In this document: positions 16,496-63,836 of the stretch, one piece after another
Layout: each line of letters opens with the position of its first letter
Numbering within the stretch: position 1 is the stretch's first letter
DNA from: Candidatus Omnitrophota bacterium
Lineage (GTDB): Bacteria > Omnitrophota > Gorgyraeia > Duberdicusellales > 4484-171
Direction of reading: 5' to 3'
Assembly: GCA_003154195.1 (NCBI GenBank)
Contig: PMCS01000008.1
Location: 79,366 to 143,365 of the forward strand
DNA length: 64,000 nt
Program-made: the position numbers and the translations under genes
The notes under the pieces: model-generated
Told to the model about the DNA's origin: nothing
Databases searched by the model: none
The model's input: only the letters and a program-made list of their open reading frames with translations

Positions 16496-16725
16496 ATTTT
16501 TTTACTCCGTAAAAAAATAACCTTCTGTAGAAAATATCTTTGGAAAATTATCTACATTAGCTACATGGCCTACATGTATGCATTGAATTGCCTTGCGAAC
16601 TTTGCCAGCCTCGCCTAGCCCGCCTTGCCGAACAAGTCGAGGCAGGCTCGGCTAGGCGGGCGCCTTTACGGGAAAAGGTTTTAGTTATTTTTTCTTAACT
16701 GCAAGATGTTGATTTTCACTATGTT

Positions 16726-18454: not shown

Positions 18455-19318
18455 TTATTTTTTACGAAGTAAAAAATAATTGACGGCGTTTTGAAAAATA
18501 CGTAATCCCCAGGGAACAGTTTTTTTCTTATGCCAATCGGGAATCTGGTGCTCGAACATACAGCGTTCCGGATGAGGCATCAGCCCTAAGATTCTTCCCG
18601 TCGCGTCGGTGATACCGGCAATGTTACGCAGGGAACCATTAGGGTTGACCGTTTCACTTTCTTCGATTCCACCAACATCATCACAATACCTGAAAGCGAT
18701 CCGGCCGGCGGCCTCAAGCTCCTTGACTATTTTTTGAGGCGCAAGAAACTTTCCTTCGCCGTGAGCAATCGGCAACCGTATCACTTCCGGTAAGCCCTTC
18801 GTCCATATCTTTTCCGGTTTTGTTTCTTTCTTTTCGTCCCTCGTCCTTCGTCCCCGCCATCCTGCGGATGGCGAGGTCTCGCCAATTTGTTTTACAAATT
18901 GGCGGACTTCTTCCTTCGTTTTAAGGTATATCCATCTATCAACAAACCGGCCGCAGTCATTAAAGCTGAGAGTGACTTTCTGCCGGAAATCCGCGTCGGG
19001 CAAGATTCCGGTTTTAACCATTACCTGAAAACCGTTACAAATACCCAGTACCAGTCCACCCTTGCCGATAAAAGCCTTTAATTCATCCTTGAGCCACAAA
19101 AGCAGTTCTAAAGAAAAAATTTTCCCCGCGCCGAGGTCATCGCCGTAGCTGAAGCCCCCGGGAAAACAAATAATCTGGTAGCGCGATAGGCTCTTTGCTT
19201 CTTTAACATAATTGATATGCCGCAAAGAAGCTTCGGCTCCGGCCAGCTCAAAGGCCAAAGTCGTTTCCTTATCGCAGTTAATCCCCGCCGTACGTAATAT
19301 TAATGCTTTAGGTTTCAT
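18455..19318 (-). CDS. purQ: phosphoribosylformylglycinamidine synthase I (glutaminase subunit PurQ) carrying an in-frame repeat-element insertion
   Basis: MKPKALILRTAGINCDKET...GICNGFQV...PIAHGEG...MPHPER. It carries about 28 extra residues (ETSPSAGWRGRRTRDEKKETKPEKI) relative to canonical PurQ. The ORF-track start at 19366 is a TTG; the ATG at 19318 is preferred. Confidence 0.85.
   Translation of the reverse strand: MKPKALILRTAGINCDKETTLAFELAGAEASLRHINYVKEAKSLSRYQIICFPGGFSYGDDLGAGKIFSLELLLWLKDELKAFIGKGGLVLGICNGFQVMVKTGILPDADFRQKVTLSFNDCGRFVDRWIYLKTKEEVRQFVKQIGETSPSAGWRGRRTRDEKKETKPEKIWTKGLPEVIRLPIAHGEGKFLAPQKIVKELEAAGRIAFRYCDDVGGIEESETVNPNGSLRNIAGITDATGRILGLMPHPERCMFEHQIPDWHKKKTVPWGLRIFQNAVNYFLLRKK
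18836..18905. repeat. three-hairpin repeat cluster inserted in-frame in purQ
   Basis: ccatcctgcggatgg (18858-18872), ggcgaggtctcgcc (18870-18883; same motif at 35918-35931) and ccaatttgttttacaaattgg (18882-18902). Confidence 0.7.
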
Positions 19319-24602: not shown

Positions 24603-24708
24603 TTTTACCTCTCTTTATTTTAATGAAACTTGCCCGGTATTCCGGGCTTAGTTGAATTATCCCCGAAGAGGAATTTGCTTCGCAAAAAAATAAACATCCC
24701 GCTTACGC
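24602..24708. repeat. degenerate family-3 element plus partial AT/CG hairpins
   Basis: aatgaaacttgcccggtattccgggcttagttgaattatccccgaag, then tttgcttcgcaaaaaaataaac and atcccgcttacgcggat. Confidence 0.5.
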
Positions 24709-24902
24709 GGATAAAATATTACTTACCTACCCCGGGGTATAATCCTATGAATTTCAATTACTATGCTTCCTTAATGATCCTCGGACAGACTGTTTGCTGA
24801 AGCTCCACAATCTCACAGGCATGGTCTTCCGGAGTTGGGATAAAGATACCGCAGGTATCCTTATCCCAATTGTACTACTGACCGCTGTTATTTCAAGTAA
24901 AA

Positions 24903-25538
24903 CTATTTTTCGCGCCGCGAAAAATAGCCCGCGATAAGCATTTTAACATTATCGCCGATACGCGAAAATTCCTTATCGGCAAATAAATCTTTGTTAAAAA
25001 CGCTCCCGCCGAAGGCGGCCGCGTCGGCGCCGTTTTTAAAAAACTCGGCGATGTTGGCGGCGTTCACGCCGCCGCAAGCAAGCAGTTTTATATGCTCAAA
25101 GGGAGCCTTTATTTCCTTAAAATAAGCTGGGCCAAAAAAGCCGGCGGGAAAAACCTTTACCATTGCCGCCCCCGCCTGCCAGGCGCAATATATTTCCTGC
25201 GGGGTAAGCGCGCCCGGGAAAAAAGCGATTTTTTCCCTTCGGCAAAAAATCGCTACTTCTTTTACCAAAACCGGAGAAACAATAAATGAAGCCCCGGCAT
25301 TGATCGCCGCCTTTAAAGAACTTTCGTCGAGGACTGTTCCCGCGCCGACCGACAACCTGCCCCTGGCCGCCTTAATTGTCCTTTTGATAACCGCCGCGGC
25401 ATGGGGGGTATTCAAAGTAATCTCAATTGCTCTCAGGCCGACAGCCGCTACCGCTTCCACCAGCGGCTCGATATCTTCTTCCTTAACCCCACGTAAAATG
25501 CCCAAAATAGGAAGCTTTTCAAATTCTTTGATGTCCAT
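24903..25538 (-). CDS. eda: KDPG / KHG aldolase (Eda)
   Basis: LPILGILRG...IEITLNTP...GAGTVLD...FPG; Eda fold. The palindrome ctatttttcgcgccgcgaaaaatag overlaps the stop. Confidence 0.85.
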   Translation of the reverse strand: MDIKEFEKLPILGILRGVKEEDIEPLVEAVAAVGLRAIEITLNTPHAAAVIKRTIKAARGRLSVGAGTVLDESSLKAAINAGASFIVSPVLVKEVAIFCRREKIAFFPGALTPQEIYCAWQAGAAMVKVFPAGFFGPAYFKEIKAPFEHIKLLACGGVNAANIAEFFKNGADAAAFGGSVFNKDLFADKEFSRIGDNVKMLIAGYFSRREK

Positions 25539-26987: not shown

Positions 26988-28043
26988 TTACAGCTGGCTC
27001 GATGTGGCCGGACGAAAAATAGCGCGAGCGGCGGTTTCTTTAGAAATAATTCCTTGCTGCGCCAATCTTCTTACGTCAGAATCCATAGTCATCATACCCA
27101 TATTTGTTCCGGTTTGTATTATCGAGTATAACTGATGGGTGTGGCCTTTACGAATGAGATTAGCAACGGCCGGCGTCACGATTAAAACTTCCCTGGCCGC
27201 CGTTCTCCCATTGCCGTCTTTAAGCGTCAAAAGCTGCTGGCAAATTACGCCTTTCAAAACCCCGGCGAGCATCGTTCTTATCTGTTGCTGCTGGTAGGGC
27301 GGAAAAACGTCGATAATCCGGTCTACAGTTTGCAACGCATCCGGCGTATGCAAAGTAGCAAAAACAAGATGACCGGTTTCCGCAATCCCCAGAGCGGCGG
27401 AGATCGTTTCCAGATCGCGCATTTCCCCCACCAGAATCACGTCGGGATCTTCGCGCAAAGCGTATTTAAGCGCGCGGGTGAAAGAAGAAGTATGGGTGCC
27501 TACTTGCCTCTGGGTAACCATTGCCCGCGCGTGAGGATAAATAAATTCAACGGGGTCTTCAATGGTTATAATATGCCGTGGTTCGGTCTGGTTTATTTTG
27601 TTGATTAACGCCGCCAGAGTAGTCGACTTACCATTCCCGGTAGAACCAACCACTAAAACCAAACCGTTATTCAGTTCGGTAAGCCTTATGACTTCCGGCG
27701 TCAAATTCAATTCTTCCGGTGTGGGAATCTTAAAAGGTATAACTCTTATGGCAATGCCGATACCATCTTGCTGCCGATAAAGATTTGCCCGAAAACGGCA
27801 CAAACCTTCGATCTTATAGGAAAAATCCAGTTCCCATTCTTTTTCGAACTCTTCACGCTGTTCCTGCGTAATCATGCTATAGATAAGCTGCGCAGCGGCT
27901 TCCTTGCTTAAAGGGGGAAAATCTTCGAGCGGCTTTATCTCGCCATATAAACGTATGCTTGGCCGCAGGCCGACGGCAAGATGGAGGTCGCTGGCTTTCT
28001 TTTCTACCGTAAACCGCAAAAGATCATTAATATTAACATCCAT
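26988..28043 (-). CDS. pilT: type IV pilus retraction ATPase PilT
   Basis: Walker A GSTGNGKST and ...GEMRDLETISAALGIAETGHLVFATLHT typical of PilT. Confidence 0.9.
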   Translation of the reverse strand: MDVNINDLLRFTVEKKASDLHLAVGLRPSIRLYGEIKPLEDFPPLSKEAAAQLIYSMITQEQREEFEKEWELDFSYKIEGLCRFRANLYRQQDGIGIAIRVIPFKIPTPEELNLTPEVIRLTELNNGLVLVVGSTGNGKSTTLAALINKINQTEPRHIITIEDPVEFIYPHARAMVTQRQVGTHTSSFTRALKYALREDPDVILVGEMRDLETISAALGIAETGHLVFATLHTPDALQTVDRIIDVFPPYQQQQIRTMLAGVLKGVICQQLLTLKDGNGRTAAREVLIVTPAVANLIRKGHTHQLYSIIQTGTNMGMMTMDSDVRRLAQQGIISKETAARAIFRPATSSQL

Positions 28044-28069: not shown

Positions 28070-29728
28070 TTACGTCAATCGTAAATCCTTTACGGCAAGG
28101 CGGGAAGTATTATAGAAGGGGTCTTTCTCTAGGGTATAGGCGATATCGAAACAGTCGGCGAATTTAACGATTTCCATAAGGTCTTTATCGTAAACAACAG
28201 CTTCCATGGTCCTATCGCTTTGCTCAAGCCATAAGGAAAAACCCCTGCCGGCTTTTTGGGGAGGTTTCTTTTTGGTAACGCCGCGGGTAACAAACAGCGG
28301 CGCGCGGTTCTCCTCTCCGTAAGGCTTGAGCTTCTCCATCTCTTCGCATAACCCCGGGGTAATCTCGTTAAAATCAAGGCGGCAATCGATGTCGCAGACG
28401 GGGACTAAATCATGGGTCGACAAACTTTTTTTAAGATAATCGTTAACGCGCCGGTGGAATGAATTTATCTCATCCCGGGGAATATTGATACCGGCAGCTT
28501 TCTTATGGCCGCCGTACTCGCAAAAACCGGCAGAACATTTCTCTAAAACCTCCATCAGGTGCACACTGTGGATCGAACGCGCCGAACCGCGGGCTGAATC
28601 TTCCTGGAGCGAAAAAACAAAAGACGGCCGATAGTATTTTTCCGCTAATCTTGAAGCGACAATGCCCAGTACCCCGGGATGCCAGTCGTTTCCGGAAACC
28701 ATGATCGCGTAGTCATCGCCGGAATTTTTCTCTAAGATCAACTCTGCCTCCCGTAGGATAACGCTTTCGATATCTTTACGCGTTTTATTATATTCGTTAA
28801 GTTTTTGGGCCAGCCGTAAAGATTCGTCTTGGTCGCGGCTTAAAAATAAATCCAGAGCGTCGTTGGCGTGCGCGATGCGTCCGGCGGCGTTAATGCGCGG
28901 GCCGAGAATAAACCCCAGGTGAAACGAATCGAGATTCCTCTGTTTGACGCCGCTGGCCTCGCACAAGCTTTTAATCGCAAGGCGTTCGCTCTGGCGGATA
29001 CATTTTAAGCCTTCGATTAAAAGAGCCCTGTTTTCGCCGCGCAAGGGAACAACATCACAAACAATAGACAAGGCCGCCAAATCCAAAACATCATAGCAAT
29101 CCTCGCCGGTCAACGCCTGCAACAGCTTAAACGACAGGGCTCCGGCGCTGAAATCTTTAAAAGGATAATCCGAATCCGCTCTCTTGGGATTAACAAACGC
29201 GAATGGCCGGTTTGCTCCTTCCTTAGGGTGATGGTGATCGACCACAATCGCCTCTATCCCGTATTGTTCCGCTAAATTTATCTCATTAAAAGAATTTGTG
29301 CCGCAATCAAAAGCGACGATAAGGCCGGCGCCGAAAGAACGGGCTTTTTCGATCGCGTCAACGCTTAACCCGTAACCGTCATTGACGCGATGGGGGATAT
29401 AAAAAAAACAGGGCGAAGTATGGCGCAAAATAAATTCATTAAATATCGCGCAACTGGTGACGCCATCGACATCATAATCGCCGACGACAAATATCTTTTC
29501 CCGCGCGGTAATCGCTTTCTTGATACGCTCAACCGCCCGGGCCATATCGGGAAGCGCCAGCGGCGAAGGAAGATGATCGACATCGGGATTCAAAAATTCT
29601 TCGACATCGTCGCCTCCGGATAAACGATAGGCCAAAACCTGCGCCAATGGCAGGGAAATGTTATAGCGCTCGCTAAAGGCTCGGGCTTGCGGATGGGTTT
29701 CTTTTATTTTCCAGTTTTTTCGTTTCAT
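28070..29728 (-). CDS. recJ: single-stranded-DNA-specific exonuclease RecJ
   Basis: DHH motifs VVGDYDVDGVTS and IVVDHH, plus DHHA1. The start is refined to MKRKNWKIK at 29728; the ORF-track start at 29803 reads through two hairpin modules. Confidence 0.85.
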   Translation of the reverse strand: MKRKNWKIKETHPQARAFSERYNISLPLAQVLAYRLSGGDDVEEFLNPDVDHLPSPLALPDMARAVERIKKAITAREKIFVVGDYDVDGVTSCAIFNEFILRHTSPCFFYIPHRVNDGYGLSVDAIEKARSFGAGLIVAFDCGTNSFNEINLAEQYGIEAIVVDHHHPKEGANRPFAFVNPKRADSDYPFKDFSAGALSFKLLQALTGEDCYDVLDLAALSIVCDVVPLRGENRALLIEGLKCIRQSERLAIKSLCEASGVKQRNLDSFHLGFILGPRINAAGRIAHANDALDLFLSRDQDESLRLAQKLNEYNKTRKDIESVILREAELILEKNSGDDYAIMVSGNDWHPGVLGIVASRLAEKYYRPSFVFSLQEDSARGSARSIHSVHLMEVLEKCSAGFCEYGGHKKAAGINIPRDEINSFHRRVNDYLKKSLSTHDLVPVCDIDCRLDFNEITPGLCEEMEKLKPYGEENRAPLFVTRGVTKKKPPQKAGRGFSLWLEQSDRTMEAVVYDKDLMEIVKFADCFDIAYTLEKDPFYNTSRLAVKDLRLT

Positions 29729-29776
29729 ATTTTTTTGCTTCGCAAAAAAATATCCTTCCATCCGCTTCACGGATGG
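29728..29776. repeat. AT hairpin plus CCATCCGC-TTCA-CGGATGG hairpin pair
   Basis: tatttttttgcttcgcaaaaaaata followed by ccatccgcttcacggatgg, in the recJ 5' region. Confidence 0.8.
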
Positions 29777-32546: not shown

Positions 32547-32577
32547 TATTTATTTTTTGCGCAGCAAAAAATAAATA
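32547..32577. repeat. AT hairpin module
   Basis: ttatttattttttgcgcagcaaaaaataaataa, between the MFS stop and the yqeY start. Confidence 0.75.
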
Positions 32578-39766: not shown

Positions 39767-39826
39767 TTATTTTTTTGCTCCGCAAAAAAATAACCGGATA
39801 AATTTTTTGCAAAGCAAAAAATTTAT
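39767..39826. repeat. two tandem AT hairpin modules
   Basis: ttatttttttgctccgcaaaaaaataa and ataaattttttgcaaagcaaaaaatttat, between the macA stop and the macB start. Confidence 0.75.
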
Positions 39827-43662: not shown

Positions 43663-43980
43663 TTAATGAAACTTCGCCAAACACAAGCCCGAAGGGCGCC
43701 GCGCGAGGCGGTAGTCGAATTATCCCGAAGGGACGGGATTTACTTCGTAAAAAAATATCCTCCATCCGCTTCGCGGATGGAGAAAAAATAAATAAAATAT
43801 TTCCCCTGCGTCTTTAATGATACTAAAACATCTTGTTTTAGTCAACCCCGTTAGAAAACTTCGTTTTCTAACGGGGTAAAGATAAATAGTTTAACCGAAA
43901 AAATTTTTCCTGCCTAAGGCAGGGCAAGACCGAGAAAATGCGTAACCGCATTTTCTCGGTTAGCGAAAACTATTTATCTA
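43663..43980. repeat. mosaic of at least seven hairpin repeat modules (candidate structured RNA)
   Basis: Inverted family-3 element (43663-43740); ccatccgcttcgcggatgg (43762-43780); ctaaaacatcttgttttag (43823-43841); ccccgttagaaaacttcgttttctaacgggg (43848-43878); cctgcctaaggcagg (43909-43923); ccgagaaaatgcgtaaccgcattttctcgg (43929-43958); all within an outer palindrome agataaatagttt...aaactatttatct. Confidence 0.75.
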
Positions 43981-45981
43981 TTTATTGATTTTAGCCACCA
44001 ATTCTTCAATTCGGTGCTCCACGCTGCGCTCGATCATCGCCGGTAATAACGCGTGTAATTTTTTCTTAAAATCCGAGTCCAACCATTTAAAATTCATCGC
44101 CTCGTAAGAACCGGATAGCTGGAAATCAAAATCCAGAAAAAACGAATTTTTATCAATAAGACCGAATAACGGCCGGAATTTAGGCGAAGCGGCCAAAATA
44201 TTTTTGGATAAAAGAAGCGAGAGACGGCTGGAAACCAGGCCTTCGGCGTTTACGCTGAGGCTGCCCTTCAATTTCACATCGGGAGAGTTTAATTTTATTT
44301 TTTCGATATTGACCGTCTCATCTTTTATTACAAACTGCGCGATCAGTCGATCGAAATCAATTTTTTTAAGGGGCGGTAAAATGAAGAAATCGGATAACCA
44401 GTTAAAAAAACTAACATCCTTGAGACAGCCGTTTTGTATGAAAAAATTTCCTTTTAAAAAAGGAAATAAATAATTATTATAAACGATACCGGCGTCGCAT
44501 TTGCCGTGAAACCCCTTAAACCGTGGCGACAAATCAACCAATTTACCGGCGTCGGCGCCTTTAACTGCGATATTGCATGATTTTAAAAATAGGCCGCGGT
44601 TAAAATCCAATACCCCTTCTGCCCGCAAAAATCCGTCGTAAAGATAAGAAGAAAATTTAAAATCTCCGGCGCCGATCCTTCCCGCCGCCATAAAATCTTT
44701 TAAAAAAATACGGGAAGTATTCTTGCCGGCTTTATAAGAAATTTTTGCCTCGGGAAAATATAACCGCAACCCCGCGAGCAAATTTACGCCCAGCGATAAA
44801 TCTTTAAATTTCGCGACCAACCTGGTAAAATCGCGGTAATCCGGTTTTTGTAAAAAATCATAATAAACCTTTCCGCTGAATTTACCGGATTTTACGGCCC
44901 CTAAAACACCCAGATCAAATACGTTTAAATTTTTAACTTCCCGACGATATCGCTGGGCCGGATAGGAAGAAAACTTAAAATTTAAGAGGTAAGCTTTATC
45001 CCCGGAAATAACGCCGCGCAGGCCATAGGGTACACCTTGTAAGGAAAAAGTGAAATTCTCCAAAGTAATGGTTTTCCCGTTAATTTTTGCCAAACAATCA
45101 AAATCGAAAATATCAAAAGATTTCCTGCTTGAGAAATAAGGATGCGGCATATTTGTTTCGCCGAAACCGCCTATGGCACCGGACAGTTTATCGGGAAAAT
45201 TGATCGCGGCGATTAGATTGCTCAATGATAAAACCCCGTTAAGCCGTAAGGTATCTTGCTGAAAAGACCCCCAGAACTTCGCATAAAAGTAATTCTTTTT
45301 TAACTCTAGATTCTCGATGTTTACGCCGTTTTTTGTCCGATATCCGGAAAAACTAAATTCTAAAAAATTATCTTCCGCCGGCGCCTTGTTCCCGGCGCCG
45401 AAATTAATAAATTTGCCCAGCCTGATCCGGCCATAACTCGATATAAGATTATTACGCGATTTTTCAAAAACAACGTCAGCCCCTATTTTCAAAAAATTAT
45501 TCTCCCCTGATATAAATAAAGCGTTCCTCAGGACAACGCTAAAATCTTCCGCTTCCTCCGGGGTATAATCGAATAGACGCCCCTGAATATTTTCGCGGGA
45601 AAAGCTCCCGTAATTGTTGACAGTAATCACTGGTTTATCGATATAAATCCTGGTAATTTTAAAATCTCCTCCTGAGATAAACTGGAACAAAGGGAAAAAG
45701 ATTTTAACTTTTCGGGCGCGGTTAAAAAAGAAGCTTCTTCCCCGTCCGGAAGGAGGCTTAAAGGAAATATCGTTGATGATAAAACAATGGGGAGGAAAAT
45801 ACAAAATATTACGAAAAGTTACCGGCTGGCCTAAATACGCGGATATATCGCGCTCAATCTTAGTTTTCTGGATATTTACCGCGACATTAAAAACCAATGA
45901 ACCAAAAACTATCGATCCCGCTACAATCAAACTGCCCCGCAATAACCGGGAAACAGTTCTACGATAAGTATTCTTTGACAT
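43978..45981 (-). CDS. AsmA-like / DUF748-type envelope biogenesis protein (putative)
   Basis: 667 aa with an N-terminal TM helix then a long beta-rich domain. Confidence 0.35.
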   Translation of the reverse strand: MSKNTYRRTVSRLLRGSLIVAGSIVFGSLVFNVAVNIQKTKIERDISAYLGQPVTFRNILYFPPHCFIINDISFKPPSGRGRSFFFNRARKVKIFFPLFQFISGGDFKITRIYIDKPVITVNNYGSFSRENIQGRLFDYTPEEAEDFSVVLRNALFISGENNFLKIGADVVFEKSRNNLISSYGRIRLGKFINFGAGNKAPAEDNFLEFSFSGYRTKNGVNIENLELKKNYFYAKFWGSFQQDTLRLNGVLSLSNLIAAINFPDKLSGAIGGFGETNMPHPYFSSRKSFDIFDFDCLAKINGKTITLENFTFSLQGVPYGLRGVISGDKAYLLNFKFSSYPAQRYRREVKNLNVFDLGVLGAVKSGKFSGKVYYDFLQKPDYRDFTRLVAKFKDLSLGVNLLAGLRLYFPEAKISYKAGKNTSRIFLKDFMAAGRIGAGDFKFSSYLYDGFLRAEGVLDFNRGLFLKSCNIAVKGADAGKLVDLSPRFKGFHGKCDAGIVYNNYLFPFLKGNFFIQNGCLKDVSFFNWLSDFFILPPLKKIDFDRLIAQFVIKDETVNIEKIKLNSPDVKLKGSLSVNAEGLVSSRLSLLLSKNILAASPKFRPLFGLIDKNSFFLDFDFQLSGSYEAMNFKWLDSDFKKKLHALLPAMIERSVEHRIEELVAKINK

Positions 45982-46558: not shown

Positions 46559-46885
46559 AAGTTTTAGCGATAATTATTTTATACCCGGCGAGACTCATTG
46601 CTTAGGGCAATGGGACTAAGCCTCAAACTCATTGCCCCCTTCGGGGCAATGAAACTTGGCCCGCCAAATACGGCGGGAGTTAGTTTCATTGATTCGGCTA
46701 TCCCCCTACGGGGATAGTTCAACTAAGCCCGGGGCACCAGGCAAGTTTCATTACGGCGAAGTCTCAAGCTCATTACCTGAAATCTGAAGTCGCGCTCTAA
46801 GCGCTCCCACGATTCCAGGTAATTCGACTACCGCCTCATTCTGCGCCCTTCGGGCTTGTATTCGGCGAAGTCTCATTAGATATCG
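46559..46885. repeat. tandem array of short hairpins ending in a family-3 element
   Basis: cattgcttagggcaatg; cattgccccttcggggcaatg; cccgccaaatacggcggg; ctatccccctacggggatag; gcgctctaagcgc. Then ggtaattcgactaccgcctc...cttcgggcttg...ggcgaagtctcattaga (46818-46882). Confidence 0.75.
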
Positions 46886-48021: not shown

Positions 48022-48103
48022 CCCTTCGCTTCGCTCAGGGTTAATTCGACTACGGCCTCACTCTACGCCCTTCGGGCTTGATTTCGGCCAAGTCTCATTA
48101 AAT
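48022..48103. repeat. family-3 element (GGTAATTCGACTACCGCCTC...GGCGAAGTCTCATTAAAT)
   Basis: cccttcgcttcgctcagggttaattcgactacggcctcactctacgcccttcgggcttgatttcggccaagtctcattaaat. Confidence 0.8.
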
Positions 48104-55073: not shown

Positions 55074-56975
55074 TCATTTCCGAAGGAAATTTTCTTGCGC
55101 TCTTTTTTTACGCGGCAAAGGATGGGATTTACTATGCTCCGGCTGAAAATCTTTGAGTAACCCGGCGGCGCCTAATTTTTGCAGCGCTTCTTTCACGAAT
55201 TGTTTATTTTTAGGATTTCTGTATTGCAGTAAGGCGCGCTGGTATTTACGCTCCTTAAATTCTCTGGCGACATAAACTTTCTGTCCGGTTAAGGGATGTT
55301 TACCGGTATGATACATGCAACTCGCCAGGCACATCGGTAAAGGCATAAAATCCTGGATCTGTTCAGAACTGATGCGCTTTTTCTTAACATAAAGAGCCAA
55401 GGCTAAAGCATCCTTAAGTGTGGCGCCGGGGTGGCCGACAATAAAATAGTTCACCAGAAAACATTTTTTATCCATCTTCTTATTGAAATGTTCGAACTTT
55501 TTTAAAAAATCTTCGTAAATATCCAACCCCGGTTTATTCATCAGAGAAAGAACATCACCGCAAATATGTTCCGGCGCCACCTTCAGGTAACCGCTGATAT
55601 GATGGCGCATGGTTTGCGCTAAATATTCATCGGCATCGCTGTCGGTCAGCAAATCATACCGGAAACCGCTTCCGATAAACACATGTTTTACCCCGGGCAA
55701 CTGTTTGATTTTTTGATACAAGCGTAAACTTTCCTTATAGCCTAGTTTTAGATTTTTGCATTTACGCGGGACAAGGCAATGGTTTTCACAGAAATCGCCG
55801 TTATACCAAAGCGGACAGGACGCATGGTAAAGATTTGCCGTAGGGCCGCCGACATCGGTTATTGTGCCTCTAAAATATGTTTGCCGCGTAAGCCCGGTTA
55901 CTTCCCGCAAAATAGAATTTTCACTGCGCGACTGGACGATCCTCCCCTGGTGCAGCGACAAAGAACAAAAACTGCACTCTCCCGGGCAACCGCGGTGCGA
56001 AACAATAGAAAATCTGACCGTCTCCAGCGCCGGCACGCCTCCCTCCCGGTCATAAACCGGATGCCAGTTGCGCGCATAAGGCAGTTCATAAACTTTATCC
56101 AATTCTTGCGTATTTAAAGGTAATGCCGGGGGAAGCTGGATCACAAAACGGTCGGCGTGTTTTTGTGCCAAGGGCTTAGCGCGGGAAGGGCTTTGCTGAC
56201 GATAAACCAGGCTGAAAGACTGGTTGAATTTATCTTTATCAGCCGCAGTTTCTTCAAAAGACGGTAAAGCGATAAAATCGCTTAAAAAATCAATGGTTCT
56301 ACGGTTAATCACCGTACCCTTTATATCGTTTAAAGAATCAGGCGCTTCGCCTTTATTCAACCGGCCGGCAATTTCCACGATTGGGCGCTCCGCCATGCCA
56401 TAGACTAAAATATCGGCCTTAGCGTCCACAAGAATGGAGCGCCTGGCTTTATCATCCCAATAGTCATAGTGCGCCAACCGGCGCAAACTTGCCTCGATGC
56501 CGCCTAAAACTATCGGGATTTTGCCGAAAATCTGGCGCACTCGATTAGCATAAACGATTAAAGGCCGGTCCGGCCGCTTGCCGGATTTCGCTCCCGGCGA
56601 ATAATCATCCGATTGCCTGGGCTTTTTGTTGGAAGTATAATTGGCGACCATTGAATCCACATTGCCGCTGGTGATACCGAAAAAAAGGCGGGGACGGCCG
56701 AGGGCCTGAAAATCTTTTGTTTCGCGCCAATCCGGTTGGGCGATTATGCCTACTTTATAGCCGGCATTTTCCAAGACCCGGGAAATAACCGCGGCGCCAA
56801 AAGAAGGATGGTCGATATAAGCGTCGCCGGTAATAATAATTATATCGCATTGCTGCCAACGGCGCTGTTTCAGGTCGGATTGGTTGACGGGAAGAAAATC
56901 ACAAGGTAGAGAACTATCACTAACCTTATCGGTGGTTTTAAATACTGCCATAGAACTGGCCGGTGGATTTGACAT
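55074..56975 (-). CDS. ygiQ: YgiQ-family (UPF0313) radical SAM protein
   Basis: DIIIITGDAYIDHPSFGAAVISRVL... and CPGECSFC radical-SAM cysteines. The start is refined to MSNPP at 56975; the ORF track's longer N-terminus reads through a repeat element. Confidence 0.85.
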   Translation of the reverse strand: MSNPPASSMAVFKTTDKVSDSSLPCDFLPVNQSDLKQRRWQQCDIIIITGDAYIDHPSFGAAVISRVLENAGYKVGIIAQPDWRETKDFQALGRPRLFFGITSGNVDSMVANYTSNKKPRQSDDYSPGAKSGKRPDRPLIVYANRVRQIFGKIPIVLGGIEASLRRLAHYDYWDDKARRSILVDAKADILVYGMAERPIVEIAGRLNKGEAPDSLNDIKGTVINRRTIDFLSDFIALPSFEETAADKDKFNQSFSLVYRQQSPSRAKPLAQKHADRFVIQLPPALPLNTQELDKVYELPYARNWHPVYDREGGVPALETVRFSIVSHRGCPGECSFCSLSLHQGRIVQSRSENSILREVTGLTRQTYFRGTITDVGGPTANLYHASCPLWYNGDFCENHCLVPRKCKNLKLGYKESLRLYQKIKQLPGVKHVFIGSGFRYDLLTDSDADEYLAQTMRHHISGYLKVAPEHICGDVLSLMNKPGLDIYEDFLKKFEHFNKKMDKKCFLVNYFIVGHPGATLKDALALALYVKKKRISSEQIQDFMPLPMCLASCMYHTGKHPLTGQKVYVAREFKERKYQRALLQYRNPKNKQFVKEALQKLGAAGLLKDFQPEHSKSHPLPRKKRAQENFLRK

Positions 56976-56983
56976 ACCCATTA

Positions 56984-57058
56984 CCCCCTTCGGGGGTAAT
57001 TCGACTACCGTCTCGTCCGGCGCGCTTTGCGCTTGGACTCGACGAAGTCTCATTAAAT
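56984..57058. repeat. family-3 element
   Basis: taccccttcgggggtaattcgactaccgtctcgtccggcgcgctttgcgcttggactcgacgaagtctcattaaat. Its 3' TCATTAAAT contains the greA stop. Its 5' hairpin sits 8 nt upstream of the ygiQ ATG. Confidence 0.8.
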
Positions 57059-57523
57059 TGATATACCCACAACTTTATACTTAAGTACTCCGGCAGGGAC
57101 CTCTACTTCTACCGTATCTCCTACCGCTTTGCCCAACAGCGCTTTTCCGACAGGAGAAGTAACGGAAATGGAGCCGTCGGCGGCGTTTGCCTCATCAGAA
57201 CCTACCAGTTTATATTCCGTTTCCTCCCCGGTATCTAAATCGGCTATTTTAACTTTATTACCCAGATAAGCTTTGTCGCCGGCAGCAACCGGGTGCTCGA
57301 TCAGCTCGGCTCGCGTAAGCCGGTCTTCTAAATCTTTTATTCTTTTTTCGTTGTGCGCGAACGCTTCTTTGGCCGCGTCATATTCGGCGTTTTCGCTTAA
57401 ATCGCCCAGAGAACGCGCGTGCGACAGAGCCGCGGCGATTTCCCTGCGCTTTTTATTCTTCAGTTCCTCTAATTCCTTAATTAATTTATCATGCCCTTCT
57501 TTAGTTAAATAAATCCTTTCCAT
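57053..57523 (-). CDS. greA: transcription elongation factor GreA
   Basis: MERIYLTKEGHDKLIKELEELKNKKRREIAAALSHARSLGDLSENAEYDAAKE... typical of GreA. Confidence 0.9.
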   Translation of the reverse strand: MERIYLTKEGHDKLIKELEELKNKKRREIAAALSHARSLGDLSENAEYDAAKEAFAHNEKRIKDLEDRLTRAELIEHPVAAGDKAYLGNKVKIADLDTGEETEYKLVGSDEANAADGSISVTSPVGKALLGKAVGDTVEVEVPAGVLKYKVVGISI

Positions 57524-57544
57524 ATAAGCCTCCGAAATTATTCT

Positions 57545-57910
57545 TCATTTGACCTTGAATTTAATCACGATATCGGCGGCTTCATCCTTTCCGCCGGCCG
57601 CGCCATCCGCTCCCAAGCTGATAAGCCTTACGTTATCAGCGCTATCGACCTGATAGATTATCGGCCTGCCCCATTTATCTTTTATATCACCGACCGAACA
57701 TTCTATCCCGCCTGCGCCGATCATCTCGCGCAAAGACACCGGCGGCTTTTTGTTTAAAACCGTATAGGCCAAAACGCAATCCTTCAACTTTTTCATCCCC
57801 CGATAAGTCTTCCGGATCGAAAAAGCGTCAAAAATAGAAAAAATAAGATAGGTAAAAAAAACCACGACAAAAAGATACATCTTTATTTGACGCCGGTTTG
57901 GCCTATTCAT
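57545..57910 (-). CDS. GspG-C-domain pseudopilin-like protein with non-canonical N-terminus
   Basis: C-terminus KDKWGRPIIYQVDSADNVRLISLGADGAAGGKDEAADIV matches the T2SS GspG signature. The N-terminal helix MYLFVVVFFTYLIFSIF lacks the G-F/E5 prepilin cleavage motif. Confidence 0.5.
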   Translation of the reverse strand: MNRPNRRQIKMYLFVVVFFTYLIFSIFDAFSIRKTYRGMKKLKDCVLAYTVLNKKPPVSLREMIGAGGIECSVGDIKDKWGRPIIYQVDSADNVRLISLGADGAAGGKDEAADIVIKFKVK

Positions 57911-57926
57911 CGCACGCTTCCCTCTC

Positions 57927-60900
57927 CTATGGTTGAGAACCCGGCGCTTTCGGCGTGCCGGTTAAACCATTAATATCCACGGGCTTCCTGAATAAAAAAT
58001 TACCCGTCGTAACTTTCTGCACGCTGCCGTCTTGTTTGTTTAATTGCACATAATACTTCTTCCCACCTTTTTTAACGCCGACACTCCACGATAAATCGGC
58101 ATCTTTAACCGAGATAACTTCTCCGCCGATCGCCAACCCCGCAAAATGCGCGGCGCCGTCATGGGTAAGCCTCTCTTTAATAAATTCTTGCTTTTGGGAA
58201 TCTACTTTTATTATCAGATAACCGAGAGACGAAAGAAATTGGAATTCCCATCCATCATGCCAGGGGTTTGTCTCTTCCCCCGTTATGACCGTTATTTTAT
58301 TATTGGCTAAAATCTTTTGAGCTTCCTGATAACAATAATCTTTAAGCAAACGCAGGGTTAACTTAACCGAAGCATCTTCTTCTATCTCGGCAAGCGCGCT
58401 CCATTTTTTTGAAGCAAGGCTGATTATCCATCGGCCGTTCTTAAAATCTTTCCGCACCGGTAAAAAATATTTTTCTCCGCTCTCCTTCGCCGCCGCGGCG
58501 ACAGCTAAATCATCCGCCTCCGGCGCCGAAAGGTACTTCTTCAGAGTTACCTTTTCCGATTCATCTTCAACAACCAGAATCATCCCTTTAGGGTAATAAA
58601 AATTCCACATATTATTTTGCTGCCAGATTGCCAGAGGTTCTTCGCTCGCGTTTTCTTTCGCGATTTGCTTAACCCTTGTTTCGCTGATGGTTTTCTTCTG
58701 GTTCACTACTTTCCCCGATTTTTTATTCACCTTAAAAGTATAATTATAATCGGCAGTATTATAATTCAGGATATATAAAAAACCGCGCACTTCGATATTT
58801 TCTTCTTTTAAATCGAGATCGGGAAATATTTTTTTTATTTCCGTTATCGCCTCCTGCTTGGAAAAGGCGGGAAATTCCGCTTTTAATTCGCGCCGCAGGA
58901 TATCGAAATAAAAGTCGATAATCTTTTTGTTATAATCAATGGCGATTTTCCAGGCAACCGCCACATTCTTTTCAATAAGATTAACCGCTACCTCCTTAGG
59001 ATGAATATTCATCTCCCTGCCCACGTGGCTTTTAACGTCGATCTCGGAAAGCCTGTTCGCCGTAGGCAGAAGAACCGCTACCTTTTCCCAGAGCTGAGCC
59101 GAACGACGATTATCTTCGCGAGCCAAAACAATCTCCACCAGCTTGTCCTGCGCTTCTTTTTCTAATTTAAGCGGAGCGTCGAAGCGGCAGAATTTGCCCT
59201 CATCTTTCACCCGGTCAACTACATTGCCGAGAGAATCCCGTTTCAGGGTGTTAATCTTCCAGTCAGCCCGGTGCACGCGCGTTATTAAAAGCTGTACGTT
59301 TCTAAACCGCGCCTCATCGGCGGGTATCCCTTCTTTTGCCAACTCCGCAAGGCAGAGTTTTATGACTTCTTCCGGCTCAATGTCAAGAATAAACGGCTCG
59401 CCCCTGGCAATTCCGAAATTAAAACCTTCAAAGATTGTTTCGGGGAGTAAAACCGTCGTTCTCGCTTGCTCGCCTTCCTGGCCGGTTGCCTCTTTTCCGC
59501 TCAGGTAAAAAGTTTTATAATTGCCCTGCACCTGGCGGCTCATGACCATGGAAATAAGAGACGGCGGTAAAATACGGTGGAAACTGGCAACCCTTCTCGT
59601 CTTTACCAAAATTACCTCTCCGGAACGCAGTTTAATCAAAAATTGCTCGTTATCAAGAATATCCAAAAATGTGGCCAGTTTATCGAATTTTACTCCTGAC
59701 TGAAAACCGTTCTCTAAAATCTTCTCTTTTTCTTTATTGGTGGAAAGTTTGCCGATAACCCAGGTATCGCAATCATTGATCCCTTTAAAATCGATATCTT
59801 CTAAATACTGGGTAGCTAATACGCAGCAAACGCCGGAATTCTTGCTTTCTCTTAATAATAATTCGATCGCCGGCCTGGCTACAAAATGAAACGGATCGGT
59901 AGATAAAAATGACCGCTTTGAGCCGATCTCATCGATATAAAATATAAGGCGCGGCCGATCGCTGGGGCCCTGTTTTTTCATCCAGCAATAAATCGAATAA
60001 GCAACCTGGGAAATAACCAGGTAACGGTCTTCAAAAGTTTCCAGCTCGGAAAGATTAATGATGTTGATAGGTGTTTTATCGAACCTTTGGGAAAATAAAT
60101 CAATATCCAAGGGGACGCCGTCATACCAAATACGCTCGGCGCCGTTCAAGTGTTCGCGTAATTTATCCGCTAAGAGTTTGCGCACGGGCTCCGGTATGTA
60201 TTCATCGACCGGCGCGTCCCCCACCTTCGCCAACGGCAGGTGATCGATCAAATCAATAAAGCGTGCCAAACCTTTAATACCATGAATCTCAATACCATTC
60301 AACCAGCTATAAAGAATCAATTCCGATAAAAAATTCTTCTCCCGGTCTTTCTGATTTATTTCTTCGTTAACGTACAGACGGCCGATAAGAGCGCTTATCA
60401 GAAAATCGATTGCCGTAAAAATATTTTCCCGCTCTTTATCGTAAAGCTCTTTTATATTTTCGGGAGCCGGAGGCAGTAAAGAAATCGCCAAAGGTATGCC
60501 TGATTTAGAACGCGGGGTAAAGACAGCGACCTCAACCGTATCCTTTAATCGTTTAACATAATCCTCGGTCAAGCCAAATCTTCCCAGGTGCCTCATTTGG
60601 TTATCGAATTCCTGTCTTGCCCGGTCTCGCCAGTCTTCACTTTGTCCGTATTCTTCGGAAAAAAATTCGAAATATTCCGGCGAGGTTTTATCGAATAAAA
60701 GGCACAGAGAGGAAAGGTCGCCTTTAAGGTCAATGATAATCGAGGGCACTTCCTTTTGCGCTGCTTCTTCGATAATGCTTTTGGCAAAAACAGTCTTACC
60801 ACAAGCCGGTGACCCGCAGATAAAAACATGGCCCATGAGATTCCCCATGGGCAGGAAAAATTTTGAAAGCAGCCCTCCGCCGCTTTCCAGCGAAATGCGA

Positions 60901-61013
60901 TTACCCAAAAATAAGCTTTCTAAACGTAAATCGTCCGACATATTTTCAATGAGGCTTATCCCGCCGCATTTTGGCGGGATGCAGCCGAATTGGCCCGGCA
61001 CTAATTTTGTCAC
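57927..61013 (-). CDS. large P-loop NTPase, DUF87 / HerA-VirB4-like core with about 550-aa C-terminal region of unknown function
   Basis: Walker A ICGSPACGKT, Walker-B-like LIFYIDEIG and an ATQ sensor motif (CCVLATQYLEDID). 1028 aa. The ORF-track start is a GTG; possible internal ATG starts at 60941 and 60848. Confidence 0.5.
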   Translation of the reverse strand: MTKLVPGQFGCIPPKCGGISLIENMSDDLRLESLFLGNRISLESGGGLLSKFFLPMGNLMGHVFICGSPACGKTVFAKSIIEEAAQKEVPSIIIDLKGDLSSLCLLFDKTSPEYFEFFSEEYGQSEDWRDRARQEFDNQMRHLGRFGLTEDYVKRLKDTVEVAVFTPRSKSGIPLAISLLPPAPENIKELYDKERENIFTAIDFLISALIGRLYVNEEINQKDREKNFLSELILYSWLNGIEIHGIKGLARFIDLIDHLPLAKVGDAPVDEYIPEPVRKLLADKLREHLNGAERIWYDGVPLDIDLFSQRFDKTPINIINLSELETFEDRYLVISQVAYSIYCWMKKQGPSDRPRLIFYIDEIGSKRSFLSTDPFHFVARPAIELLLRESKNSGVCCVLATQYLEDIDFKGINDCDTWVIGKLSTNKEKEKILENGFQSGVKFDKLATFLDILDNEQFLIKLRSGEVILVKTRRVASFHRILPPSLISMVMSRQVQGNYKTFYLSGKEATGQEGEQARTTVLLPETIFEGFNFGIARGEPFILDIEPEEVIKLCLAELAKEGIPADEARFRNVQLLITRVHRADWKINTLKRDSLGNVVDRVKDEGKFCRFDAPLKLEKEAQDKLVEIVLAREDNRRSAQLWEKVAVLLPTANRLSEIDVKSHVGREMNIHPKEVAVNLIEKNVAVAWKIAIDYNKKIIDFYFDILRRELKAEFPAFSKQEAITEIKKIFPDLDLKEENIEVRGFLYILNYNTADYNYTFKVNKKSGKVVNQKKTISETRVKQIAKENASEEPLAIWQQNNMWNFYYPKGMILVVEDESEKVTLKKYLSAPEADDLAVAAAAKESGEKYFLPVRKDFKNGRWIISLASKKWSALAEIEEDASVKLTLRLLKDYCYQEAQKILANNKITVITGEETNPWHDGWEFQFLSSLGYLIIKVDSQKQEFIKERLTHDGAAHFAGLAIGGEVISVKDADLSWSVGVKKGGKKYYVQLNKQDGSVQKVTTGNFLFRKPVDINGLTGTPKAPGSQP

Positions 61014-61039
61014 AGCAAAATCAGTGCCGGGTTATACTC

Positions 61040-61298
61040 CGCAAAAAATACTGCCATCCGCTTGCGCGGATGGGAAAAAGGTAGATTACAGAAAAACAAC
61101 CAAGAAACAATCACCAAACAATATCTAATCTCATAGTGGTTATTTTAGCACTTTCGGTATTATAGACAAGATTATAAATCTTAACGCTTAAGTTTATTTT
61201 TTGCGCCGCGAAAAAAGACCCTTCGCTTCGCTCAGGGTAATTCGACTACCGCCTCGTCCGGCGCGCTTCGCGCTTGGACCCGGCGAAGTCTCATTAAA
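61040..61298. repeat. repeat cluster: half AT hairpin, CCATCCGC hairpin, AT hairpin and a family-3 element
   Basis: gccatccgcttgcgcggatggg (61053-61074); ttttttgcgccgcgaaaaaa (61197-61216); cccttcgcttcgctcagggtaattcgactaccgcctcgtccggcgcgcttcgcgcttggacccggcgaagtctcattaaat (61217-61298). Confidence 0.8.
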
Positions 61299-61914: not shown

Positions 61915-63558
61915 CTAAATGCCGGCCGATTCTTTTTTTATCCGCATCAGCGGACAGTAATTATTTTTTACGCAGTAAAAAATAATTAGCGGCAGAAAAA
62001 TAACAAATACGCCCGAAATGATAAAGTAAAAATTATGCGATCTCATGAGCGGCATCCCGACGATAACAGCGTCGATGACAAAATGCGCCAGAACAACAGT
62101 TTCGAAACCATACCGTAAAAATACTAAAACAAAGATACTGCCGAATATCGTAAGCTCGATGCCGCGAAGATAAACGGGAAAAAATGCGTAGGTGGAATGA
62201 GCAAAACCCCAGAATAAAGCGGACAAAAAAATTGCCAATAACGTACACTTGGTAAAAGCTTTTAAAAAAGTAAACGCAAAAAGCCGATAGGCCGCCTCTT
62301 CGCCGATCGCCGCGACAAGGCTGATTGTTAATACGGAGATAAACGGCAAAAAAGTGGCCAACGCGTTAGAATAGCTTGTATCCGGTACTATCCAGGCGCC
62401 GAAAAAGTTCTTTGCCCCCAAATAAAATAAAGTGATGTAACCTAAAAATATAAAAGCTAAACTGTAACCAACGATAAATACCGGCGTAATCCGCGAAAAT
62501 TCAATCTTTTTATCTTTAAACGCCCTGTAGACAGTTAACTTATCCCGGGATAGCGCTTCCCCTAAGGTTACATACGCGAAAATAAACATCACTAAACCTA
62601 TAGTAGAGACAACCGCGCCCGAAAGCGCATTCATAAAGAATAAAACCTTACTGATTGTGTCGGGGTAAGAATTCCATATAAGCGGTAAGCCGTTAAAAAA
62701 CGAGAATAAACTTAAAACACCGACAATCGCGCTAAGCAGGACCCCGGGCATCCAGTCAAAACATAAATTTTTTACTTTGAAACCAAGCAGGAATACGGCG
62801 GCGACGGTAAGAATAAACATCGCGATTTGAGACGATACCGCTAAAGCCGCGCCCCAGGATGTTTCTTTATTAAACGAACGCCAGAATTCTTCGGGAATAT
62901 AGAGGTACCTTTTAAACCTGCCGACTTTATCCCCATAAACATCCACGGCTAATCTTAAAGCGGCGTTTTTGACCCGATAATATTTTCTCTCCCATTCAAA
63001 ATAATGGTCGGTTCGATGATTTCGTTTTTCACTGGCGCTTTCTTTAAGCCGATAATCCGCCAGATTAAAACCGGCGGAACTAATCATATTTTGCGCGATA
63101 ACCTTAGCGTTTTTAGAAGAAAGGTCGGCGCCGGGCGAATCGTCAAGCAAAAAATGCCTGAAATTCAAAACATCGCCGCTGGCTGGGTCAACATCGGCGG
63201 CATAACCTTCCTTCTCCAACTCCTTGAACCATCGAATGTGCCAAAAACAAATGGCGACATCCTTGTTGGAAAGACTACTTGACGGAAATTTATACTTATC
63301 CGCGCGTTGGTAATCATTTTTTTGCAAATAGGCAAGCACCGAATCGTTGGAAGAAAAAATTATCGTTTTTTCAAACCCCTGTAAATTAAATTTTTCTTTC
63401 GCGAAAAATAACTCCGCTCTTCTTAAAACTTCTTTTTTATCCAGTTTAAGGTCGACGGGGGCAACAGGAAAGATTTTGCCGAAATACGACAAAAAAATAA
63501 TGATTCCCGCCGCGCCAAAAACCAGCCAAATGATTAAAGGTTTTATATTTTTGCCCAT
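61915..63558 (-). CDS. CPBP (CAAX protease / Abi) family intramembrane metalloprotease with N-terminal periplasmic domain
   Basis: EEAAYRLF, FWGFAHS and HFVIDA motifs in C-terminal TM helices. The tail ...FYCVKNNY... is encoded by an AT hairpin. Confidence 0.7.
   Translation of the reverse strand: MGKNIKPLIIWLVFGAAGIIIFLSYFGKIFPVAPVDLKLDKKEVLRRAELFFAKEKFNLQGFEKTIIFSSNDSVLAYLQKNDYQRADKYKFPSSSLSNKDVAICFWHIRWFKELEKEGYAADVDPASGDVLNFRHFLLDDSPGADLSSKNAKVIAQNMISSAGFNLADYRLKESASEKRNHRTDHYFEWERKYYRVKNAALRLAVDVYGDKVGRFKRYLYIPEEFWRSFNKETSWGAALAVSSQIAMFILTVAAVFLLGFKVKNLCFDWMPGVLLSAIVGVLSLFSFFNGLPLIWNSYPDTISKVLFFMNALSGAVVSTIGLVMFIFAYVTLGEALSRDKLTVYRAFKDKKIEFSRITPVFIVGYSLAFIFLGYITLFYLGAKNFFGAWIVPDTSYSNALATFLPFISVLTISLVAAIGEEAAYRLFAFTFLKAFTKCTLLAIFLSALFWGFAHSTYAFFPVYLRGIELTIFGSIFVLVFLRYGFETVVLAHFVIDAVIVGMPLMRSHNFYFIISGVFVIFLPLIIFYCVKNNYCPLMRIKKESAGI
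61958..61988. repeat. AT hairpin module inside the CPBP 3' coding end
   Basis: taattattttttacgcagtaaaaaataatta; near-identical to 18454-18480. Confidence 0.75.
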
Positions 63559-63572: not shown

Positions 63573-63836
63573 GGCTGAGGCAATGGTAATGCCATCCTTC
63601 GCTCTTCGAGCTTCGGAGAAATCTTGCCGAAGCCTTGGCGAAGGCAGACCTTGGCGAAGGCAGACCTTGGCGAAAGCAGACCTTGGCGAAGGCAGACCTT
63701 AGCGAAGGCAGACCTTAGCGAAGGCAGACCTTAGCGAAGGCGGAAAGCCCGTATGGGTTATAGTTAAGGTTATGGCTGTGAATTCGTATCAACCCTAACC
63801 ATTGCCTTAACCCAAACCGGCTTCCTAACCCTAGCC
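63573..63836. repeat. GGTTAGGG/CCCTAACC-family element, copy D, containing a 16-bp tandem repeat
   Basis: ggctgaggcaatggtaatg...; tandem (ggcgaaggcagacctt) of about 6.7 copies at 63637-63743; ...gtatgggttatagttaaggttatggctgtgaattcgtatcaaccctaaccattgccttaacccaaaccggcttcctaaccctagcc. Confidence 0.8.

Follow-up and report, generated by a model that had tools for sequence, protein, structure and literature searches.

A HerA/DUF853-type ATPase with a predicted repeat tail beside an orphan pilin-like gene and greA in Candidatus Omnitrophota

Do adjacent genes for a hexameric-type ATPase, a pilin-like protein, and GreA make up a machine of their own, or do they share a neighborhood by descent? The question is raised by a contig of a Candidatus Omnitrophota bacterium (PMCS01000008.1), of which we analyzed a stretch of 64,000 nt (the window): its positions 57053-61013 carry three minus-strand open reading frames (ORFs) that encode a large ATPase, a small membrane-anchored protein resembling the pseudopilin GspG, and greA. 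On the sequence-only reading of this block, it could be a novel secretion or filament module, or else a defense or DNA-handling system built on the ATPase. The proposal of a secretion or filament module is largely refuted, since the gene pair is not conserved elsewhere. The reading that we favor, with somewhat better than even confidence, is that the block is an inherited gene neighborhood, probably co-transcribed, that forms no dedicated machine, and that the ATPase is a stand-alone HerA/DUF853 motor.

The packing of the three genes, which had been described as operon-like, could be reproduced from the ORFs in both coordinates and spacing: 16 bp separate the ATPase gene from the pilin-like gene, and 21 bp the latter from greA. 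Such gaps are short for this DNA (10 of the 50 same-strand gaps in the window are ≤25 bp, the shortest 20%, and the median is 100 bp), and Shine-Dalgarno-like sites precede both downstream genes (GGAGAGGG, 9 nt ahead of ATG 57910, for the pilin-like gene; GGAGG ahead of the ATG of greA). The genes are thus spaced like one transcription unit and are probably co-transcribed. Their common strand, however, is uninformative, since 52 of the 56 ORFs in the window lie on the minus strand; this bias, along with a GC skew that is negative in 31 of 32 blocks of 2 kb, is consistent with a location on one replichore with strong co-orientation.

The ATPase and its C-terminal tail

Translation bears out the motifs first noted in the ATPase, namely a P-loop, an hhhhDE Walker B, and ATQ (Table 1), and seven full-length homologues, when aligned, show no variation at residues G43, G48, K49, T50, D337, E338, A376, T377, and Q378. 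All matches to Pfam and NCBIfam families fall below cut-off and are confined to the P-loop region (HerA_C, PF05872, 16.5 against a cut-off of 22; DUF87, PF01935, 16.1 against 23.2). A homologue search with the ATPase recovered 86 proteins, about 77 of which are alike only over the N-terminal 40-49% of the query; these N-domain-only homologues carry PF01935 or PF05872 hits, and several bear NCBI names such as "DUF853 family protein" or HerA-like. Because its own scores are sub-threshold while its homologues carry those hits, we take the ATPase to be a divergent relative of the DUF853 and DUF87 families. A scan of a genome collection with the ATPase alignment likewise returned only N-domain relatives among the matches listed, and in a family-profile search of the PDB, the best solved relatives were YjgR, listed as a "HerA like helicase" (E = 1.2e-4), and the HerAs of Sir2 and DUF4297 systems (E ~1e-4). 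The protein therefore stands outside the well-characterized families, and the evidence from motifs and homologues places it, within the FtsK-HerA superfamily, on the HerA/DUF853 branch. The other half of its first label, a likeness to VirB4, did not hold up: identity as a conjugative VirB4/TraC ATPase or as a coupling protein (TrwB/TraD) was rejected on family scores below cut-off (TrwB_AAD_bind 20.0 against 20.5, over residues 57-100 only; TIGR03743 TraD 17.8 against 366) and on the lack of any relaxase or type IV secretion system gene in the window.

The closest parallel within the branch is offered by YjgR/DUF853 (PF05872 HerA_C), which shares with the ATPase a Walker A near the N-terminus with no HAS-barrel before it, and then, in the same order, D-x-K-G-D-L, a helical insertion, Walker B hhhhDE, and (A/S)-(T/S)-Q-N-P-x-D. 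In the window protein, Walker A begins at residue 43, with about 40 residues ahead of it, so that an N-terminal HAS-barrel is lacking. YjgR (503 aa) differs in that it is without the approximately 530 extra C-terminal residues, and the similarity is limited to the motif regions. A literature search on DUF853/YjgR found, by title or abstract, no paper addressing function. HerA itself, as known from HerA-NurA, Sir2-HerA, and DUF4297-HerA, belongs to the same superfamily, and the ATPase probably works in a similar way, by analogy, as a hexameric ring translocase; Foldseek matched an AlphaFold2 (AF2) model of the full-length protein to HerA (4d2i), DndH-C (7es4), and 8zir/8xav/8wld with probability 1.00 and target TM-scores (template modeling scores) of 0.30-0.44, the ATPase part of the model being of low confidence (predicted local distance difference test, pLDDT, ~50-60). 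In HerA partner systems the effector is encoded by a separate gene, whereas the window ATPase has a fused, non-enzymatic repeat tail and no HAS-barrel; no NurA, Sir2, or DUF4297 gene adjoins it in the window or in the nine genomic contexts examined.

These likenesses bear on the main rival to our reading, which we hold to be unlikely but not negligible: an NTPase that acts as a single gene in conflict with phages or plasmids, or in DNA handling, with the pilin-like gene and greA as bystanders. On this view, a HerA-like ring would be loaded onto DNA that is foreign or damaged, with the repeat tail detecting the trigger or bringing in host factors. Several observations speak for such a role. The best profile matches of the ATPase are to defense families of the PADLOC collection (mad8 and HerA profiles, with mad8 at E = 4.2e-10 for the window protein and E-values down to 1e-14 for homologues), its fold matches include DndH-C and the HerAs of Sir2 and DUF4297 defense systems, the ATPase of sister clades is joined in one protein with an Mrr-type nuclease and TPR repeats, and the family is patchily distributed in changing contexts. 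One homologue, 47% identical, lies downstream of a gene for a 170-aa protein (L008 2780-3292) with an Rx4H motif and a match to Apea-like HEPN proteins; an excisionase-like MerR gene nearby hints at a mobile or defense context at that locus. The HEPN match is sub-threshold (E = 0.0018), however, and no nuclease, Sir2, NurA, DUF4297, or methylase partner is found near the ATPase in the window or in most relatives. Nor is an enzymatic domain predicted in the tail, a scan of viral contigs yielded no relative of the ATPase, and three lineages hold the gene in a vertically inherited core neighborhood rather than in a defense island. MADS, the system from which mad8 takes its place, is presented in its description as an 8-gene operon (10.1101/2023.03.30.534895), and no other mad-like genes stand beside the ATPase. 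Literature on MADS mad8, on PepSY domains with HerA, and on Omnitrophota pilins, judged by titles, abstracts, and term searches, contained nothing that explains the ATPase.

The remaining approximately 550 residues had been called unrecognizable, which holds at normal Pfam thresholds, where no match is seen, but two kinds of substructure can now be proposed. The tail is very rare: HMMER, run exhaustively against 1.84 billion representative proteins, gave 16 matches, in which all named members are from Omnitrophota, the full-length ones sit on the same ATPase, and the remainder are fragments, except for a polyubiquitin-like protein (P0099) that matches over a short motif only. That match (E = 8e-10) extends across five repeated stretches, and its E-value is inflated because the same motif is repeated five times. 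It falls between the ATPase domain and the repeat array, where the pattern xLDIEPEExIxxxxxELAKEGIP is found, and hhalign aligned residues ~510-590 to ubiquitin residues 9-63 over 52 columns (probability 65%, E = 6e-5, 35% identity), in a region where AF2 confidence is low. We therefore regard a ubiquitin-like nature of residues 510-590 as possible but unproven.

C-terminal to this segment, the AF2 model of residues 630-1004 (pLDDT 85; predicted TM-score, pTM, 0.66) shows six helix-then-four-strand units, which also align with one another. These predicted units, about 60 aa long and arranged in tandem, resemble those of PepSY repeat proteins (PF03413; YkoI/YpeB type), and the evidence for a PepSY-like character is suggestive but weak: unit 6 matches best (18.5 bits against a cut-off of 24, E = 0.0026), only 2 of 20 units matched at all, the homologue P0088 also matches below cut-off, and one fragment is named 'YkoI', a PepSY protein, by JGI. 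Known PepSY domains are typically outside the cell, whereas the whole ATPase, array included, is predicted to be cytoplasmic because no signal peptide or membrane segment is seen in it. A literature search found no PepSY-ATPase fusion. In the PDB, Foldseek found no counterpart of the whole array, and a repeat-unit profile gave nothing significant against PDB sequences (the PepSY protein UipA appeared at E = 1.6). The beta-propellers that Foldseek did return (TM ~0.13, root-mean-square deviation >25 Å) were dismissed as an artefact of repeated four-strand meanders. As to the role of the tail, the C-terminal parts of the N-domain homologues vary: some have an Mrr nuclease with TPR repeats, others a DnaJ domain or a zinc ribbon, and others no such module; since sister clades carry such modules in its place, we infer by analogy that the tail may be a substrate-binding or regulatory arm of the motor.

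The length of the protein also needs revision. The 1028 aa first given are indeed the length of the ORF from GTG 61013, but translation most likely starts at ATG 60941, giving 1004 aa, as indicated by a public gene call and by the homologue alignment. GTG 61013 belongs to the loop closed by a 16-bp stem, which is part of a structured leader of about 200 nt. An Rfam scan of the whole window matched no family, so neither this leader nor the hairpin repeats described below are known RNAs; the leader could be regulatory, or could merely consist of further repeat-derived hairpins.

Table 1. Positions of features in and around the three-gene block (numbering of the window)
Feature	Position	Strand	Basis or remarks
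ATPase gene ORF	57927-61013	-	1028 aa if read from GTG 61013
ATPase gene, likely start	57927..60941	-	1004 aa from ATG 60941; public gene call P0001 (100% identical, 1004 aa) and homologue alignment
HerA/DUF853-like P-loop ATPase domain, ~residues 1-470	59532..60941	-	Motifs, homologues, fold and profile matches
Walker A GSPACGKT	60792-60815	-	Checked by translation
DLKGDLSS	60708-60731	-	ATPase domain motif
Walker B LIFYIDE	59928-59948	-	Checked by translation
ATQ	59808-59816	-	Checked by translation
Possible ubiquitin-like (beta-grasp) segment, residues ~510-590	59172..59414	-	P0099 match, hhalign
Six tandem units of ~60 aa, each a helix and four strands, residues 630-985	57987..59054	-	AF2 model
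Structured 5' leader, three strong hairpins including a perfect 16-bp stem	60945..61145	-	Folding -80.4 kcal/mol, z = -6.0 against shuffles
Promoter-like site TTGTCT, 16 nt, TG-TAAAAT, between maf and ATPase gene	61142..61169	-	Consensus scan; pattern match only
Pilin-like gene ORF, orphan membrane-anchored GspG-like protein	57545-57910	-	121 aa; Pfam T2SSG, 2kep alignment
Hydrophobic helix of pilin-like protein	57821-57877	-	
T2SSG-matching part of pilin-like protein	57566-57688	-	Residues 75-115
greA ORF	57053-57523	-	156 aa
ygiQ radical-SAM gene, next downstream	55074..56981	-	TIGR03904 820.8 bits; start is first Met after repeat element
Hairpin repeat between greA and ygiQ	56996..57056	-	-27.5 kcal/mol, z = -4.6; its TAA is the greA stop, its ATG gives the false ygiQ extension
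Hairpin repeat at maf 3' end	61237..61297	-	-30.1 kcal/mol, z = -3.5; read through by maf
Other full hairpin repeats	43663-43723	+	
	46819-46879	-	
	48041-48101	-	
Partial hairpin repeats	11394-11410, 24620-24636		
AT-rich palindrome at maf end, one of 11 copies (family D2)	61193..61218	-	Terminator-like
Other copies of the palindrome, TTATTTTTTGC-nnn-GCAAAAAATAA	6432-6457, 10702-10727, 16494-16519, 18454-18479, 24902-24927, 29727-29752, 32549-32574, 39767-39792, 61960-61985, 63386-63411		
16-nt tandem repeat CCTTGGCGAAGGCAGA	63633-63741		6.8 copies, 96% matches; just upstream of Rce1-like gene
Inverted relatives of the tandem repeat	near 8977-9100		
PilT-like T2SSE gene	26988-28043		~30 kb off the block
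Large ORF without any Pfam match	43978-45981	-	667 aa

The pilin-like protein and gene order across nine lineages

The second gene had been read as carrying a GspG C-terminal domain behind an N-terminal helix without a prepilin-peptidase motif, and both parts of this description are borne out. The protein matches Pfam T2SSG (PF08334) at 29.0 bits against a cut-off of 21, over profile positions 65-106 of 108 only, and can be aligned with GspG of known structure (2kep) along the loop SLGADG..GG...ADI; against the equivalog-level model TIGR01710 it scores 26 bits where the cut-off is 88.85. By inspection of the sequence, its layout is also that of GspG (T2SSG, TIGR01710), with a hydrophobic N-terminal helix, a helical spine, and a small beta domain whose C-terminal region contains the shared loop. 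GspG, however, has a class III signal peptide, Glu5, and neighbors belonging to the type II secretion system, and the pilin-like protein has none of these: its N-terminus (MNRPNRRQIKMYLFVVVFFTYLIFSIFDAF) forms a plain hydrophobic helix, and a search for the prepilin motif G-F/M-T-L-x-E came up empty for this protein and for every other ORF of the window. With no prepilin cleavage site, the protein probably stays tethered as an uncleaved membrane anchor and does not enter a filament. It is also an orphan. A word-index search of 5.8 billion proteins found no homologue beyond its own species, phmmer against all window ORFs together with those from the first 113 loci (a set without L114-L119) returned only same-species copies, and no pilin-like ORF occurs at any locus outside the window species. 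The simplest account is that the gene is a lineage-specific orphan in a variable slot after the ATPase.

These results weigh directly on the idea of a new secretion or filament system in which the HerA-like ATPase powers a pseudopilus of the GspG-like protein. What makes the idea attractive is that a hexameric-type ATPase adjoins, with tight spacing, a true GspG C-terminal domain. Yet besides the missing cleavage site and Glu5, no platform protein, secretin, minor pilins, prepilin peptidase, or second pilin-like gene was found in the 64-kb window, where the only pilus-related genes are a distant PilT-like T2SSE gene (Table 1) and one for a PilZ-STAS protein; the pilin-like gene is absent beside every other member of the ATPase family; and the known pilus motors are ATPases of the GspE/PilB family and not HerA-like. 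We consider such a system very improbable.

How far the arrangement of the block is kept elsewhere can be judged from nine lineages with a full-length ATPase, the window species included (Table 2). Conservation of gene order, which would have strengthened the case for a functional unit, is mostly lacking. Outside the window species, greA lies near the ATPase in one lineage only (L119/L034), which is also the only one with the order ATPase, membrane protein, greA, the middle gene there encoding an unrelated, anti-sigma-like zf-HC2 protein (L119 9006-9728; L034 1130-1852), which overlaps the ATPase stop and has no gene for an extracytoplasmic function (ECF) sigma factor adjacent to it; in L116, the ATPase gene stands alone. 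A scan for GreA among metagenome contigs gave mostly distant taxa among the matches listed, and of these, only L034 carried the ATPase. At the same time, signs of shared ancestry are evident: L114 has the Rce1-like gene upstream (its product is 55% identical to that of the window), L119/L034 has greA downstream (GreA 64% identical to that of the window), and L114 and L119/L034 share a lipoprotein gene and a membrane protein gene, with the lipoproteins of L114 and L034 homologous to each other and the membrane proteins likewise.

Table 2. The ATPase gene and its surroundings in nine lineages (identity relative to the window ATPase)
Lineage	ATPase identity	Context
Window species, six independent contigs	100%	Rce1-like, maf, ATPase, pilin-like, greA, ygiQ
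L007/L008	47%	Weak HEPN-like gene upstream; ~530-bp gap downstream
L016	47%	HhH-GPD-like gene downstream
L009/L010	33%	Opposite-strand radical SAM gene
L011-L015	33%	Small ORFs without family matches
L115	37%	DUF4912 and GH57 genes
L116	34% (tail only)	Alone between opposite-strand housekeeping genes
L114	38%	Rce1-like, ATPase, 236-aa single-pass membrane protein (72-bp gap), lipoprotein, membrane protein
L119/L034	~31-35% (tail only)	ATPase, 240-aa zf-HC2 membrane protein, greA, lipoprotein, membrane protein

One feature of Table 2 does recur, in that the gene right after that of the ATPase encodes a single-pass membrane protein in three of the nine lineages (after 16 bp in the window, 72 bp in L114, and with a 4-nt overlap in L119). 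This could mean that the ATPase and its small membrane-anchored neighbor are a two-part, envelope-linked module, in which the motor, in the cytoplasm, would have a fast-diverging membrane partner to act on, to extract, or to signal through, with GreA as its transcriptional output or an incidental companion. The envelope-related neighbors in those lineages (an Rce1-like protease, a lipoprotein, a multi-pass membrane protein, and an inverse-autotransporter beta domain) fit such a module, as does the fact that PepSY domains regulate proteases. However, BLASTP detects no similarity among the three membrane proteins, and their topologies apparently differ, as judged by applying the positive-inside rule on inspection of the sequences. 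The pilin-like protein of the window has a cytoplasmic part of only about 11 residues. Six of the nine lineages, among them the closest ATPase homologues (47%), have no such neighbor, and the three that do share other neighbors as well, so that common descent explains the adjacency. We therefore rate a two-part module as distinctly unlikely. More speculative, and a long shot in our estimation, is an Omnitrophota-specific module in which the ATPase, a variable membrane-anchored protein, and GreA would couple envelope events to transcription, the ring motor engaging a membrane sensor through its ubiquitin-like and PepSY-like arms. If true, this would constitute an undescribed form of envelope-to-RNA-polymerase signaling or of membrane-protein extraction.

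The simplest account of the comparison is instead a vertically inherited Omnitrophota neighborhood. Its ancestral order would have been Rce1-like, ATPase, small membrane protein, greA, lipoprotein, membrane protein, which each lineage would then have eroded differently, keeping different pieces. Within it, the N-terminal 470 residues of the ATPase would, by analogy, most likely assemble into a hexameric ring of the HerA/FtsK type that spends ATP on pulling a polymer, whether nucleic acid or protein. The tail, with its possible ubiquitin-like unit and six PepSY-like units, may serve as an adaptor or sensor arm, and the pilin-like protein would remain anchored in the membrane, uncleaved. Some observations weigh against an inherited neighborhood devoid of a shared function. 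The order ATPase, membrane protein, greA survives in L119/L034 despite GreA being only 64% identical, a rearranged wider neighborhood, and a 4-nt overlap, and it could have survived through selection rather than inertia; a single-pass membrane protein directly after the ATPase in a third of the lineages points the same way, and the short spacing of 16 and 21 bp, with a ribosome-binding site in either gap, is in keeping with coupled expression. Moreover, both the ring-motor mechanism and the part assigned to the tail are argued from analogy, and nine lineages make up the whole base of the comparison.

greA, ygiQ, and the flanking hairpin repeats

The third gene is greA, as first annotated: both GreA/GreB domains are present (PF03449, 92.1 bits; PF01272, 95.5 bits), the equivalog score exceeds its cut-off (NCBIfam NF001263, 180.7 against 145), and the acidic tip sequence GDLSENAEY is in place. 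Downstream follows ygiQ, which is possibly on the same transcript as the block, and whose best named relatives, like the named ATPase homologues, come from metagenome-assembled genomes of Candidatus Omnitrophota. The first 24 codons of the ygiQ ORF fall within a hairpin repeat, YgiQ homologues measure about 590 aa, and the gene starts at a position matching 56981 or later in L030, the closest relative (YgiQ 76% identical, and GreA 82% over the 114 aligned residues that its contig retains). The true start is most likely near 56981. An apparent 1-nt overlap of greA and ygiQ was accordingly discarded as the product of ORF extension through the repeat. In L030, greA adjoins ygiQ across a 49-bp spacer that contains no repeat element, and in relatives with 62-64% identical YgiQ, no greA is adjacent, so the greA-ygiQ pairing is a shallow one.

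The repeats on either side of the block were correctly recognized in the sequence-only reading, but they are dispersed intergenic hairpins and not the ends of a cassette. The element is about 60 nt long, occurs in five full and two partial copies in the window where ~0.2 matches would be expected by chance, shows compensatory changes in its stems between copies, and is restricted to contigs of the same species. It resembles repetitive extragenic palindromic (REP) and miniature inverted-repeat transposable element (MITE)-like repeats in size, dispersal, intergenic location, and strong hairpin formation, and differs from them in its TAATGA end, whose TAA terminates the preceding reading frame in two cases (greA and the PilZ-STAS gene, ORF end 46876). 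At the maf gene, the Pfam match stops at residue 194 of 227.

Since the two flanking copies are 94% identical and either is only 74-80% identical to the others, it is conceivable that the block is a mobile cassette delimited by direct repeats. We find this highly improbable: the housekeeping gene greA lies inside, greA and ygiQ are adjacent in the closest relative with no element at the junction, the same element occupies at least three unrelated intergenic sites in the window, and a strain missing exactly the segment between the repeats was not seen among six independent contigs of the species. In addition, no integrase, transposase, or composition shift is found, and upstream synteny with L114 is retained. 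The L030 junction, the restriction to one species, and the housekeeping gene inside thus argue that the repeats are not cassette ends; on these comparisons, they are independent insertions of a species-specific REP-like hairpin.

The immediate neighbors of the block are maf and the Rce1-like gene on one side and ygiQ on the other, and elsewhere the window holds core-chromosome genes (those for RecG, the CCA-adding enzyme, serine hydroxymethyltransferase, purine synthesis, RecJ, and glycogen-branching enzyme), a MacB/TolC efflux set, and a gene for an ABC-F protein. We note in passing three further observations. Several of the AT-rich palindromes listed in Table 1 lie at or near ORF ends and have the appearance of bidirectional terminator hairpins. 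A 16-nt tandem repeat stands just upstream of the Rce1-like gene, with inverted relatives some distance away (Table 1). Finally, two large ORFs of the same genome are without any Pfam match, one in the window (Table 1) and one of 1065 aa at L001 1796-4993.

Implications for the ATPase family and for annotation

The absence of the proposed secretion or filament machine stops a lead that was attractive but wrong. For annotation, the hairpin repeat has consequences of its own: it supplies stop codons, lengthens maf by 33 codons, and falsely extends ygiQ, and errors of this sort will be propagated when these genomes are annotated automatically. Within a known superfamily, the ATPase stands out by a rare arrangement of domains, and the combination of a HerA/DUF853-type motor with a possible ubiquitin-like unit and six PepSY-like units is an architecture that is apparently new to description. 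Given that the array is predicted to be cytoplasmic, it would broaden the known use of the PepSY fold. More generally, the swapping of C-terminal modules within the DUF853/YjgR branch suggests a common motor that is fitted with interchangeable adaptors.

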